A DNA stretch of 64,000 bases from an uncultured Cytophagales bacterium. GTDB lineage: Bacteria; Bacteroidota; Bacteroidia; Cytophagales; JAAEPT01. The stretch covers positions 195,779-259,778 of the forward strand of contig CAWFGW010000028.1 of assembly GCA_963815495.1 (NCBI GenBank), written 5' to 3'. Made by a program: the position numbers. Positions 1 to 6,000 of this stretch are shown here, piece after piece. Position 1 is the first letter of the stretch. Each line of letters opens with the position of its first letter.

Positions 1-3000
1 GAAGATAACCTGATAAATATACGCGGTCTATACCCACACCATTAGTATCCGTAGCAGAGGCTTCCTTTGTTTTTGTCGGGAAAAGTTGACCGTCAATTTC
101 AAAATTTCCGTTGTCCACAACTTCTACTGTAACGGATTTGATACCCATAGAATCTGCTCCACTGGCAATAAAATGAATATCTGTCCCCTCCAATACTTCT
201 ACTGTTTTTCCAACAGTTTCTTCACTAGTAACAGACGTGATTCTACCCATTTGAATCGTGCTTATTGAAGCCTTAGGTGGAATGGTGTCATTAGTACTTA
301 CTTGCACTTTCTTCGAACATGAAAAAAAGAGCCCTGCTAAAGTCAAAAAGACTAGGTGATGATGGTTTTTCATAACTAAAGTTGATTTAAAATTTTACAA
401 AAATGATTTAATTTCTAAATCTAAAAAGTTTTATGATAAATGGATATTAAAAATAGAGAAAACCTGCTGACCATCAATTGAAATACAGTCTAATCCTCGC
501 CTTTATTGGTGTTGTCACCAACAAAGGAGTAATTGCAAATAATGAGTAAGCACAAGGACCGCTACGCTTAACCTTGCGCTATGTGGCTAAACTATTTCCA
601 GCCTTGACAGCTTTACTCCTTGTATTTAAGAGAGTTACAGAAAGAAAAACAAAAGGAAAAATGTTGATTATTAGTGATTTGTAATTATGTTTGAAGTGGT
701 AGGGTTATTCATGGAATATAGTGTTGTGTGTTTTTTTAAGTGGCTATTGGAAAAACTTTAATACTTTTCTTGGCAAGTAAGGCTGGGATAATTTCATCCT
801 CCATATTCATTCCGGTTATTACAGCATGTTCAAATTGAGGTGGATCGTAGAATGTTTGTAAGCCAAGGTTGATTACATCTAGATTTGAAATTCTAAAAAC
901 CATAAAGCGTTCTGTGTCTCCCACAAATTCTTCTAAGGTTGTTAGGTTTTCAATCCCAACAGATAATTTTCCATTATCTTTTTCTCTTAACTTAAATACC
1001 CTAGAGGTTGCAGTCCCATCGGGATTCATATACTTCTTTTCAGGAGTACTATAACCTCTTCTCAATAAATTTTCGTGATTGTTAACTAAATCCCTTGGCA
1101 TTATGAGTTATTTAGCCATTCCAAATATTTTCCAAGTTGACTTAAATCAAAATCTTCTTGAGAAGGAACTTCATCAAAAGGAATAAATAAAATCTTTTGT
1201 CTATTTGAATAAATTAAAATCTCAATTGACCTAATATTTTCTGAATCTCTTAAATCAATTGATATTTCACCATTAGGTCCAGGGCTAGCATGAAATATAT
1301 TTTGACCATGTTTTTCTAATAAACTAGTCAAAAATCTGGCAAATCGAATGACTTTTTTGTAAGGAGCTACAGCATCATCACCATCCCAGTTATCTTTAAG
1401 AGCACTATACTCTTCGAGTAAACCATGAATTCTATAATTTATTCCTAAAATGTCTTCATAAACGATTACAACACTCGAATGTGTTGTACCTGTCAAAAAA
1501 GTATATCTTGGACTAGCTTCTGTTGGAGCAATAGTTTGAGTTGTAGTATAGTTATTTGTCAAGGCTTGCATAGTAATCCTTATTTAGCATGTTCTTAAAT
1601 GTTTTAGAAGTTTCATTATGAGCTTGAATCGTCCAAGCTTTAATGTCTTCATATTGCATTGATTTTGATTTGCGTTCAACTGATGTGGTCCATATTACAG
1701 AACTTTTGCCGTTTTGGTTGTTTATTCCGTTTGCAATATTTATTGTCATTAACGAATCATCAAGAATTTTGAATGTTTGTTGAATATTCATTCCTGTCAA
1801 TTCTCCTGGGTTTTGATATTTAGTGTTTATTGAAGTCTGTAATTTTGTAGACATGAATTCGTAAGGAGATTCTTGGTCTACATCAACAGCATCAATATAT
1901 TGAAGTTTTACCTTATTGAAACTAAGTTTTCTGTCATAAGATTCAATTATTTTTTTCACAGTCTCAAAAACCAGATTTTCGAAGCTATCCTTCCATTTGT
2001 AATTTTTTTCAGTCTCGTTTACTGCAATCATACCTCTTCCATGTTGAACTACTGGCCATATAAGCTCACCCTTCCAGTATTGATGTAGAGGAGCACCAAA
2101 GACTCTTAGTTTTGCGTTATCAGGTATTAACTTTTTGTGCGTTGGGAACTGGTTTTTTAGTTTATCAGCAAACCTTCCTTGAGCCAAATCAAATCCATAA
2201 TCCTGTTGAATTCCTTCATTAGAAATAGGACATTCCCAAAAAAGTTCAAAAACTACTTCTTTAAGTGGGGCGTTCTTTAGTTTAGCTTCGCTCATATCCC
2301 AAATTTATCAATCATAACGTAAATTTGGAATAAATAGTCAATTGAATTATAACTTTTTTAGACTGGAGCCACTATCTTGATCAATTGCACACAACAATTG
2401 GATATGTGGACATGTCCACATATCCAGCTTATATAATTTTCTTCCTAAAATAGCATAAAATCTTTATCTAAAAACGAATAGCACTCTTTATTATAAAACA
2501 GTAAAAAATAATACCCGAAGATTATACGTATAATCTTCGGTAGGGGGAAGGGGGTAACGAATTTTGATTTTCAATTAGCTTTCTATATTAGGTTTTTTCC
2601 CCATTGATGGTGTTGTCACCCACAAAGGAGTAACTGCAAATAATTAGTAACCACAAGGACCGCTATGCTTAACCTTGCGCTAGGGGGCAACGTGCTGTTC
2701 TTTATTTCACTTATATTTAATGTGTTTTTCTTACTTTAATAGTTCTTCAAGTTGGTTGAAACATACCATAATACCTTCTTTGAAGCCCATGTCTATTACT
2801 GTCTCAAGATCCTCAAAGCTATTGTGTTTAGATATCATGGTTACAAGTGTTTTGCCATCAGCTTTGCTAAAAATATTTTCAAATCTCCCTTTCGGTAGGT
2901 CGGGGTTTGCATTTCCGCTTTCATCGCAAAACACATCTGTTCCGGAAAAACTTTTGTGTATTACAATTTTTTCATATTCCTGCTTTCCCCATTGTATTTG

Positions 3001-6000
3001 ATCTGTTTCGGCACCAATAATAGAAGCAGGAATAATCATACAATATAGCCAATATCCACCTTCTCGAAAATCCATAAATTTGGTTTTTGCACTACAAGGT
3101 TTAGGTCCCCACCATTGGTCTAAAAGTTCGGCAGTGGTCCAGGCTTCCCAAACCAATTCAAGGTCTGCTGCAAATTCACGCTTAACTTCAATCGTATTGT
3201 TTTCTTTGTTGACTGTAAAGTCAAATCTTAAATTAGGATTCATCTTCTGTTGGATTTTAAGTGTTCTAATACAGTATCAAGTTGGCTGAAACGTTGTGCA
3301 AGAATTTGTTTAAACTGTTCCAGCCATTTATCTATGTCTTTCATTTTATCAGCATTCAGGTGATAGTTAATTTCTCTGCCTTGTTGCTCTTGTTTCACGA
3401 TTTCACATTCTGTTAAAATTTGCAGGTGTCTTGAAACGGCTTGTCTGCTTGAGTTAAAATGCTCAGCAAGTGTGTTTGGCGTCATGGCACTAGCGGTTAA
3501 TAGCAAAATGATTGCTCGTCTGGTGGGGTCTGCTATTGCCTGAAATACATCTCGTCTTGTTTCCATGATATGCTACTAAGTGGTTGCAAATATAAACGCA
3601 ATGATTTGGTTGCACAAAATATATTTTTGATTTTTTTATAAGGAGGTTTAATAAAATAGGAGTAGTCGTTGAGCTGAATGCTCATTGCGAGGATTTCGGT
3701 TTTGTTGTTCGCCTTTGCTTGTGTTATTACCACAAACGAGTAACTGCAAATAATGAGTAAGCACAAGGACCGGACCGCTACGCTTAATCTTGTGCTATGG
3801 GGTTATCACTCAATGCTAGACTACTATCTAAAAACACAACCTCAAGCCAAGTACAGCCTGTCCCGCACTTGATGCGGGAAGACCCTTGGTGGTCCCGACC
3901 TCTGGTACGGGACAAGTAGTGAGAGCCTCAACCTGAGTAATTCCGCTCAGGTCGGGCTACTCGATTGTGCCCCGTTTTTTATTTCTTTTTTCTGTTACGT
4001 ATTTAGTTATTGTTCTCCAATACCTGAGATACAATTTATTCGGTTATCATCTTTAGCTTGGACACTATGTTCAAGTTTATGTCCAAGCTTAGCTTTTTCT
4101 CTACGATTACCACTATTAGCTTGGACACTATGTCCATGATTATGTCCAAGCTCTTATACTTTAGCCACATATCCGTAATTTGGTGAGGTAGTTGGTTCAC
4201 CATTATCCTCAATAAGGTCGAGGTCTCGCATTTTAGCTAAATGTCTTTGAGCCTTTTTATATCCATAATTAAAATGAGTAGCATATTGTCTAGTACTCAC
4301 TTCTCCTTGCATTCTAATCCAATCTAAACCTCTTAGTTCTTCATTATTAAGCTCAATTAAACCGGGTGTTTTATCTATTCGTTTTAGTGCGTCACCACTT
4401 CTTGGAAATGTAAAAACCATGTAGGGTTCTTGATATTCAACTATCGGGAGCGGAATGTTAAACTTTTCTGGGAGTTCTTTAATAGTCGTAAACCCTAAAC
4501 CTCTTTGCTCAACTAATTCTAGTTGGTCAAACACATACATTATTTTCGGATTTCTACTCAAGGAAGGAGCACTAAATTGTTTTATCTGTTCAAATTTGAT
4601 TGGTTTAACAGGTTCTCCTGGGCTTTTTATGATTATGGCATCATCATTAACTTCAAAATAGATTGGAGCCCCTTCAATGTCATAGTCCCTGTGAACAATA
4701 GCATTAATAATTGCTTCACGGAAAACAACTAATGGATAATCATAAATAGTTTCTCTTTTGGCACTCGATCGATCAATTTGTTTGCCTATTCGTTTTTCGT
4801 ACCAACTTTGGATTTTATCAACCTGTTCGATTAACGAACCTTCAATTGTGTCAATATCTTCACCTCTTGATTTTGTTTTAAAAGTAGCTCTTATCAAAGC
4901 ATTCGTATAAGGGATTTGTGGCCTGATGCCAAATAGTAAAAGTCCAAGCCCTGTAGGCTTGTACTCGTTATTTACATTTTCTATGAGACCCAACTGTTCA
5001 AATATTCTTTTGAATTTGGCGCTGCCAAACTCGACACCAAGCTTCGCTTTTTTGATAAAAGACTCTATTTGTTGCTGATTCAAATCATCGAAATGTGCTT
5101 TTGGCTCTGCTCGCTCTTTCTCGGAAAGAACCACTTCAGACTTTTCGTCTTTAGCAGTTTTGGCTCGTACTTCTGCTTCTGCAATGAATTGTTTGTTGGC
5201 TTCACGTATTTGTTTCTGCAAATCTGCTGGAAACATCTCTACATCAACACCATTTTCAACTAGGTATTTAATGCCTTTCCTGTCAACCTTTGGGTCGGGA
5301 TCTTCAATACCCACATATACTTTTTTTATTCTCGCATTTACAATTCTCTCAGCATAGCCTAATTTGGGTTGTTTTCTTGCACCCGGTGCACAGGGTTCTA
5401 ATGTGGCAAATAGGGTTGAACCGTCCAATGGTGTCGCTCTGTTCTTACGTTCAAGCAAAGTAAACTCTGCATGGTCTCCTTCTCGAAGTTCCCCTCTTGA
5501 GGCTGTTTCAATTGAACCGTTTGGTTTTACCAATACTGCACCAACCTTAGGGCTAACTTTATCATCTCTTGGTTCTTGAATAGAATCATTCATTACCTGT
5601 ATGGCAAGTTCCATATGATCCTCTGGGACTCTTTGATTTTTCTTGTTTAGCCATTTATTTCTCTATTCTTTTTTTAATCAGGTTTCTTTTAATCATAGGG
5701 CACAACGTTAAATGTAAAAACTGTAGCGGTTTTTGAAACAATATAGTGTCTTTCGACCACTTAGCCAATCCTTTGGATTGGCTTGCAACTTATTCCTCCA
5801 TGCGAGTCAATCCAAAGGATTGGCGTACTTAACTAGGAGAGGAGCAGCTACAGTTTACCACTATCTCAGCTATGGTTTTTACATGGTGTTGTAGCCAGTT
5901 TTTATTTTCCAAGTTTTAATATTCTAAAAGCTCCTTGAACAACCAAAACAAAAACTACAGTTCCTATAATCAAATCAGGTATACTTGAGTTTAGCCAATT

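Follow-up and report, generated by a model that had tools for sequence, protein, structure and literature searches.

The stretch analysed here, called the window, comprises 64,000 nucleotides (nt) of the forward strand of contig CAWFGW010000028.1 (positions 195,779 to 259,778; GenBank assembly GCA_963815495.1) from an uncultured Cytophagales bacterium. Its first part (1-17.4 kb) is a minus-strand array of gene cassettes that lies directly downstream of a gene for a 2175-amino-acid (aa) FG-GAP/ASPIC/Por_Secre_tail protein, hereafter the giant gene. The cassette genes include ArsR+AHSA1, a deaminase-HATPase_c_4 gene, a cation-efflux gene, a Gp49/HTH toxin-antitoxin pair and a UDG-like gene. The array contains 11 canonical attC sites of ~200 nt, with R'' boxes of the GGCTAAC type and R' boxes of the GTTAGCG type. 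In an integron attC site the R'' box (RYYYAAC) pairs with the R' box (GTTRRRY), L boxes and extrahelical bases complete the structure, and recombination is carried out by IntI. The subject of this work is a second repeat family of the same array, type A, which is non-coding and is present in the window in three copies:

493-589, minus strand: type A copy 1 (nhmmer 104 bits; alignment, folds)
500-511/516-527, plus-strand reading: hairpin P1 of copy 1 (folds)
526-550, plus-strand reading: invariant unpaired core of copy 1
550-557/572-579, plus-strand reading: hairpin P2 of copy 1 (folds)
2593-2689, minus strand: type A copy 2 (nhmmer 106 bits)
3705-3805, minus strand: type A copy 3 (nhmmer 95.6 bits), whose P2 loop contains GGTCC as a 5-nt tandem duplication

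An earlier note on this DNA had reported three ~90-nt copies at about these positions, two of them downstream of minus-strand cassette open reading frames (ORFs) and the third upstream of ArsR, and both the copies and their placement were borne out. A search with a profile built from all known copies recovers the three and no fourth within the window, the remaining 60 kb being empty. The three segments can be aligned across ~95 nt, and a 26-nt degenerate core has three matches in the window against none in 100 shuffles. Copy 2 lies 41 nt past the AHSA1 stop codon and copy 3 lies 138 nt upstream of ArsR. We use the minus strand, that of the cassette genes, as the working orientation, because it matches the genes and because it gives G.U rather than A.C pairs in the hairpins. 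A plus-strand mini-ORF (MSKHKDRYA) was considered and rejected, since its ATG is present in some copies only.

Type A in two conspecific arrays

A scan for the core pattern across one genome per species gave matches in a single contig of one uncultured Cytophagales metagenome-assembled genome (MAG). This contig, from a conspecific genome, is 96-97.5% identical to the window over the stretches that both contain (the giant-gene end and the ArsR-AHSA1 region), and its homologous array likewise lies downstream of the same giant gene, which encodes a T9SS-secreted protein. We refer to the 21-kb MAG locus that spans the whole array, from the giant gene to a convergent GH16 gene, as L011, and name MAG copies by their position in it; L011 9676-9772 is the orthologue of copy 2. 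There are nine type A copies in the locus; in one of them the truncation also affects an adjacent deaminase gene. All 12 copies of the two genomes run in the direction of the genes and are placed between gene units, with the same pair of ends throughout. One copy each is found at 9 of the 11 unit junctions of the MAG array, and a copy also stands at the distal end of that array, beside core genes. The edges of the repeat are sharp (5' AAC/CCCC, 3' GGCGAA) and the flanks are unrelated. Window and MAG differ by whole units bounded by type A.

In the species-representative genome every exact-pattern match falls within one array and none elsewhere; in the data searched, type A is confined to a single ~13-kb array. 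An exact-pattern scan of metagenomes returned three chance matches in coding sequence and no new family member, and the same scan missed a metagenome contig, L010, that does carry type A (described below). Viral contigs gave nothing in an exact-pattern scan, and neither did plasmids and phages in a blastn search with type A. ArsR-AHSA1 homologues at 81% identity are found in ordinary chromosomal context, without type A. The earlier note had envisaged an ordinary transposable element dispersed through the genome with terminal inverted repeats (TIRs) and target-site duplications (TSDs), and the copies found, all within the array, do not have that distribution.

As for the truncated copy, the MAG deaminase-HATPase_c_4 gene (L011 7679-7830, compared with window 4154-5614) is cut off at a position matching window 4626 and is fused there to a type A copy that ends after GTTACTCCT, a deletion with one end inside the repeat.

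Type A and the attC sites of the array

Folded as single-stranded DNA (ssDNA), type A forms two separate hairpins with unpaired ends. A constrained AAC/GTT attC scanner selects the main attC sites of the array and never type A. A covariance model built from eight main attC sites scores below 5 bits (E>5) on every type A copy, whereas unrelated attC sites reach 42.8 bits (one that follows an M23 peptidase gene) or, for a 55-nt attC that follows an LVIVD gene and was scored in two genomes, 20.8 and 15.1 bits; in the MAG array the model detects only three attC sites. Type A is thus a sequence family separate from attC, and not itself an attC, consistent with the earlier note's view that the attC-like family does not explain it. 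That it is nonetheless the ordinary attC of a second family strikes us as extremely improbable. Such an assignment could draw on the position of the copies, all 12 of which stand on the coding strand between gene units, in agreement with the location of an attC at the 3' end of its cassette, on the R-box-like GTTAAGC inside P2, and on the GTT boxes that lie 0-44 nt downstream of 8 of the 11 full copies. However, the separate hairpins, the scanner, the gap between <5 bits and the 15-43 bits of unrelated attC sites, and a crossover in L010 that lies away from G|TT all speak against it.

The part of the earlier view that has to be qualified is independence from attC, since the positions of type A are tied to the R' (GTT) end of attC sites. 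Two copies interrupt attC-like hairpins. The first, MAG copy L011 190-284, separates the spacer CCAAAAC exactly from GTTAGCA, the R' box of the canonical attC of a DUF6843 cassette. DUF6843 is a genuine cassette gene, and on four other contigs its homologues are followed by the R'' box GCACACAAC, a hairpin, a spacer of 7-8 nt (CCATGGC or CCAGGGCC) and then directly by R' (GTTGCCA or GTTACCT). The MAG attC has the same R'' box, GCACACAAC, and likewise a hairpin before the spacer, but there a 94-nt type A stands ahead of R'. The second case is in the window:

590-670, minus strand: attC-like hairpin interrupted by copy 1, with R'' TAATCAAC (670-663) and R' GTT (592-590)

The R' box of this hairpin resumes as GATTA (495-491) beyond copy 1. 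In-silico excision of 496-589 joins GTT to GATTA and gives GTTGATTA, which complements TAATCAAC, 84 nt upstream, perfectly over 8 bp. With copy 1 excised, the locus has as its minimum-free-energy fold one long hairpin closed by GTTGATTA/TAATCAAC, with an energy z-score that is not significant in this AT-rich DNA. Excision restores an attC-like hairpin convincingly for window copy 1 only, and partly for L011 190; it restores nothing for the remaining copies.

The other R'-associated copies lie at the box or some tens of nucleotides 3' of it. A GTT stands directly at the 5' edge of window copy 2 (2691-2689, minus strand), of its orthologue L011 9676 and of MAG copy L011 5624. Window copy 3, its orthologue L011 8562 and MAG copy L011 11284 lie 30-38 nt past an R' box. 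The tetranucleotide NAAC precedes CCCATAGC in 7 of the 12 copies. The 11-bp direct repeats that the earlier note saw around copy 2, AAGGGGTAACG (2548-2558) and AGGGGGCAACG (2682-2692), are identical at 9 of 11 positions and are not a TSD: AAGGGGTAACG belongs to a separate repeated module, AGGGGGCAACG to the 5' edge of type A, and neither is kept in the orthologous MAG copy.

The MAG DUF6843 gene itself is split into two overlapping ORFs of 240 and 230 aa (L001 3340-4723, which is the start of L011), where the homologues have ~320 aa; this is presumably a frameshift or a pseudogene.

A connection with attC could also be one of descent. Type A might be a degenerate attC relic or another duplicated spacer, copied passively by unequal crossing-over and with neither mobility nor function of its own. 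Pairwise local alignments do relate type A to the 5' arm of some main attC sites, in the same orientation only (z = 4.7-6.1), although in a profile test the two families match at 0.4 bits, where shuffles reach 5.2, which is not significant. Ahead of MAG copy L011 3480 stand the first 20 nt of a main attC, and the copy's own CCATAGC carries the homology further (z ~9); an attC remnant downstream of this copy is not significant. Module B (described below) shows that segments of the array do become duplicated, and six tandem 964-nt cassettes lie nearby. Passive duplication, however, should carry along a variable length of flank, whereas all 12 copies have the same ends, and the exact placement of type A inside two otherwise intact attC-like hairpins favours insertion. 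We therefore consider passive descent quite unlikely.

Hairpins, exchange between copies and interpretation

As the earlier note proposed, each copy can form two hairpins: 87% of cells are paired, against 38-59% for slid partners. The compensating change that it saw between copies 1 and 3 proved one-sided. Read on the plus strand, an A.C mismatch in copy 1 stands against an A-T pair and a G.T pair in copy 3, so only one side has changed in each case; on the minus strand G.U becomes A-U. The covariation analysis that the note proposed was run on the 12 collected copies and gave no support for an RNA structure. RNAalifold finds no pair changed on both sides, and the two-hairpin structure has a covariation score of 0.043 against a shuffle mean of 0.044, the copies being too alike for a strong test.

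These results bear on the possibility that type A is a cis-acting structured RNA transcribed with the cassettes, such as a 3'-untranslated-region (3'-UTR) stabiliser or a processing site, or else a small RNA (sRNA). Such a role would agree with the constant sense orientation to the cassette genes, with the fact that a stop codon precedes, and an intrinsic terminator follows, window copy 2 and four MAG copies, with non-Watson-Crick pairs that read as G.U on the coding strand but as A.C on the opposite one, and with the invariance of the loop and the single-stranded core. Copy 1 folds well (z = -3.8), but the folds of copies 2 and 3 (z = -0.2 and -1.3) do not surpass those of shuffles, and P1 carries 3-4 mismatches both in copy 2 and in its orthologue and has been replaced in L011 3480. 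At the gathering threshold, Rfam 15 matches only a tRNA in the whole window, and a scan of 1-5000 at E<=10 gives no credible match on the type A repeats, so that the known RNA family sought by the earlier note was not found. There is no U-tail, and the Bacteroidetes promoter motif TTTG / TAnnTTTG, present in the downstream ArsR promoter, is absent from type A by eye. Restriction to the array and placement at R' boxes are features of DNA rather than of RNA. We conclude that type A is unsupported as an RNA gene, and although the G.U pairs on the coding strand mean that it may have some role as RNA, we judge an RNA explanation very unlikely.

Direct evidence for exchange between copies comes from an independent Joint Genome Institute (JGI) metagenome (3300040801), whose 970-nt contig Ga0450804_2762491 (1-970) is L010. 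It contains, in this order, the 3' end of AHSA1, 40 nt, type A, the ArsR upstream region, ArsR and AHSA1. Its repeat is an exact hybrid that follows copy 2 to GCATAG and copy 3 from the GGTCC duplication on, including a copy-3-specific G. The crossover falls in a 9-nt interval in the P2 loop, beside the 5-nt tandem duplication and not at G|TT. Because the parents share just nine identical bases at the switch, a mis-join by the assembler is an unlikely source of the new junction k-mer. L010 is either the junction of a circle or an ArsR-AHSA1 unit duplicated in tandem, produced by two recombining type A copies. The whole family carries similar traces: all four marker combinations (four gametes) occur between the 5' and 3' halves of the repeat, and paralogues are up to 98% identical, compared with ~91% for the orthologous pair of copy 2 and L011 9676. 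That all four combinations occur, and that paralogues are closer than one orthologous pair, therefore points to frequent exchange among copies.

We conclude that type A is a discrete element, restricted to the array, fixed in orientation, associated with R' boxes and recombinogenic, and that it is distinct from attC and from known RNAs. The earlier note had offered a small structured RNA, a miniature mobile insert, or a different recombination or regulatory site; the first is unsupported, and the insert and the recombination site together make the best reading.

These properties could be accounted for by a second cassette-capture system with type A as its site: a circular unit with one type A would integrate at a resident type A through an unlinked recombinase, which would leave every unit between co-oriented copies. 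Such a system would explain why there is one co-oriented copy per unit boundary, only in the array and including the distal end of the MAG array, why type A is the sole junction element of five units, and why conspecific genomes differ by whole type A-bounded units; L010, with its crossover in the 9-nt P2-loop interval, resembles a circle junction or a re-integration product. However, no recombinase gene was found nearby, in the window or beside the MAG array. Marker mosaicism implies several crossover positions, not one, and near copy 2 the homology between window and MAG breaks at CGTTACC, 44 nt outside type A. Some cassettes with a canonical attC of their own carry type A too, and L010 is a single hybrid event that homologous recombination explains equally well. 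This is the main rival of the reading that we favour, and we regard it as unlikely. A fuller version, which we hold to be unlikely as a whole, would place an undescribed Cytophagales cassette-capture system beside classical attC, with type A as its recombination site or terminal arm, and with promoter-bearing units integrated and excised via a two-hairpin site read on the top (coding) strand.

In the reading that we favour, tentatively and at rather less than even probability, type A is a small DNA element of the insertion type that sits at cassette junctions and now serves as a recombination substrate. It would have multiplied inside the array as a small, non-autonomous insert that targets the R' region, moved either by an unlinked transposase or by the integron integrase acting on a non-canonical substrate. 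That the direct type A repeats recombine with each other is shown, and this exchange leads to the duplication or looping-out of intervening genes and to mosaic copies. In this way type A copies would act as portable homology, through which units could be duplicated, excised or swapped.

Several points weigh against an insertion-type element. No integrase or transposase was found, either in the window (ORFs of >=150 aa) or next to the array of the MAG, and the window array looks like an attC cluster without a neighbouring integrase. Type A has no clear TIRs, the best end-to-end complementarity being 7/9, and no flanking direct repeats common to the copies that could be a TSD. Five copies lie 23-58 nt after stop codons without an attC (one of them with the first 20 nt of a main attC), and an insert that targets attC would by itself leave these five unexplained. 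The two insertion cases rest on homologous attC sites and in-silico excision, with an ambiguity of +/-3 nt, and no true filled and empty allele pair of one locus was recovered. All copies come from one lineage, in which spread by transposition is indistinguishable from local recombination plus gene conversion. Since the public scans require exact patterns, and that of metagenomes missed L010, absence elsewhere is weak evidence. The mechanism is unproven because neither an enzyme nor an empty site was recovered from the data at hand.

On the current view, attC alone serves to build and shuffle sedentary cassette arrays. In the two conspecific strains studied here, most unit boundaries (nine of 11 in the MAG) are marked by an element other than attC. 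If type A is a miniature insert, it would join the few elements known to home to integron junctions, distinguished by its R' side and sense orientation, and its dispersed repeats would let homologous recombination remodel arrays without a nearby integrase. Were type A a true recombination site, Bacteroidota would have a new cassette system. Either way, attC-based cassette calling would mis-delimit type A cassettes.

Neighbouring modules and known systems

Two further repeated modules adjoin type A. The first, module B, is the next element after type A in five copies, and the second, element G, lies ahead of it:

2384-2592, minus strand: module B, adjoining copy 2 (alignments, terminator scan)
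2559-2592, minus strand: linker of module B
2558-2553, minus strand: R'-like CGTTAC of module B
2540-2515, minus strand: intrinsic terminator of module B, followed by an AT-rich promoter-like stretch
2400-2425, minus strand: 26-nt perfect palindrome of module B
2395-2389, minus strand: GTTGTGT of module B
17159-17377, minus strand: module B', the native copy, with the last ~23 nt of the giant-gene coding sequence, terminator, promoter-like stretch, palindrome variant and GTTGTGA
3829-3980, minus strand: element G, GC-rich, ~140 nt, just upstream of copy 3 (fold z = -5.3)

Module B arose by duplication, followed by divergence (73-75% identity), from the final ~23 nt of the giant gene together with the region downstream of that gene. 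Between window and MAG, homology is lost at the GTT boxes of module B (AAAATT|CGTTACC) and after CAATTGTTGTG, which is the last part of the module, past the palindrome; window and MAG also diverge immediately past module B'. The module B copies have different near-perfect palindromes at the same place, just downstream of the promoter-like stretch: GGATATGTGGACATGTCCACATATCC, TATGAACAATGTTCATA and GATAAACC..GTTTATC. They lie at window 2400-2425 and 17170-17200 and at L011 ~1040-1075, 2730-2760 and 5890-5915, and CAAYTGTTGTG follows each. Their variation suggests an operator or a recombination hairpin that co-varies.

Element G is found at three places ahead of type A (window 3829-3980, L011 5377-5520 and L011 8387-8538), after two different cassette ORFs. 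It ends in an R'-like GTTGTGT, and copy 3 lies 23 nt downstream of this box (38 nt from its G). One of its hairpins is replaced wholesale between copies with the pairing kept. Element G has no Rfam match and no match to the attC model.

Several cassettes of the two arrays have features of their own. An ORF-less, A-rich cassette of 964 nt with a main-type attC is present in six tandem copies of ~100% identity, in two blocks of three (window 9500-17150). The deaminase-HATPase_c_4 gene of the window (4154-5614, minus strand) encodes a 486-aa cytidine-deaminase + HATPase_c_4 protein that also matches PADLOC models of pAgo-associated (SIR2-PNTD) proteins (E = 1e-17), and is possibly a defence cassette. 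Just past this ORF (4036-4152) lie two direct repeats of ~38 nt, each with TTGGACA...TGTCCAAG inverted motifs. The LVIVD/T9SS-tail gene is followed by the same compact ~55-nt attC in the MAG array (L011 11209-11262) and in another metagenome (L013 1380-1435); as the context in L013 is chromosomal and unrelated, this gene is a mobile integron cassette.

Among known systems, integron attC sites resemble type A in lying co-oriented between cassettes and in that their copies recombine to hybrids, and the repeats of sedentary chromosomal integrons resemble it further in being species-specific and homogeneous in sequence. However, an attC is a single imperfect R''/R' hairpin, which type A is not, and conservation in type A peaks centrally and not at R boxes; integron crossover occurs at G|TT, whereas the sole crossover observed in type A lies in a hairpin loop. 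The attC covariance model finds three unrelated types of attC in the same arrays, and not type A.

The insertion point of IS1111-attC and group IIC-attC elements is close to the 5' (R'') end of attC, and their orientation is antisense to the cassettes (PMC3001079); IS1111 elements have subterminal inverted repeats of 11-13 bp (PMC11187229). Type A shares with both their location at integron cassette junctions in one fixed orientation, and two of its copies interrupt attC-like sites. Unlike them, it lies at the R' end, in the sense orientation, and is a 95-bp element without an ORF; by eye it has no IS1111 subterminal repeats, group II intron ends or dif-like 11-6-11 sites.

A classical miniature inverted-repeat transposable element (MITE) was considered and rejected, as type A is without a clear TIR, without a TSD and not dispersed. 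Palindrome-associated transposable elements (PATEs), derived from IS200/IS605, are closer in having a hairpin near each end without TIR or TSD: in type A, ~10 nt separate the 5' end from P2, and ~6 nt separate P1 from the 3' end. A PATE would also have a conserved target of 4-5 nt at its left flank and a cognate Y1 transposase in the genome; the window ORFs include no Y1_Tnp. Like MITEs and PATEs, type A is small, non-coding and multi-copy with sharp ends, and all of its copies are on one strand; unlike them, it is confined to the array, and the tetranucleotide of its left flank is partly conserved (NAAC in 7 of 12). Repeats of the repetitive extragenic palindrome/bacterial interspersed mosaic element (REP/BIME), enterobacterial repetitive intergenic consensus (ERIC) and BOX types are likewise intergenic, on the transcribed strand, with hairpins and after genes, but they occur genome-wide in both orientations, whereas type A occurs only in the cassette array. 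The nearest known elements are thus attC, the IS1111-attC and group IIC-attC elements, and PATEs, and type A lacks at least one defining feature of each.

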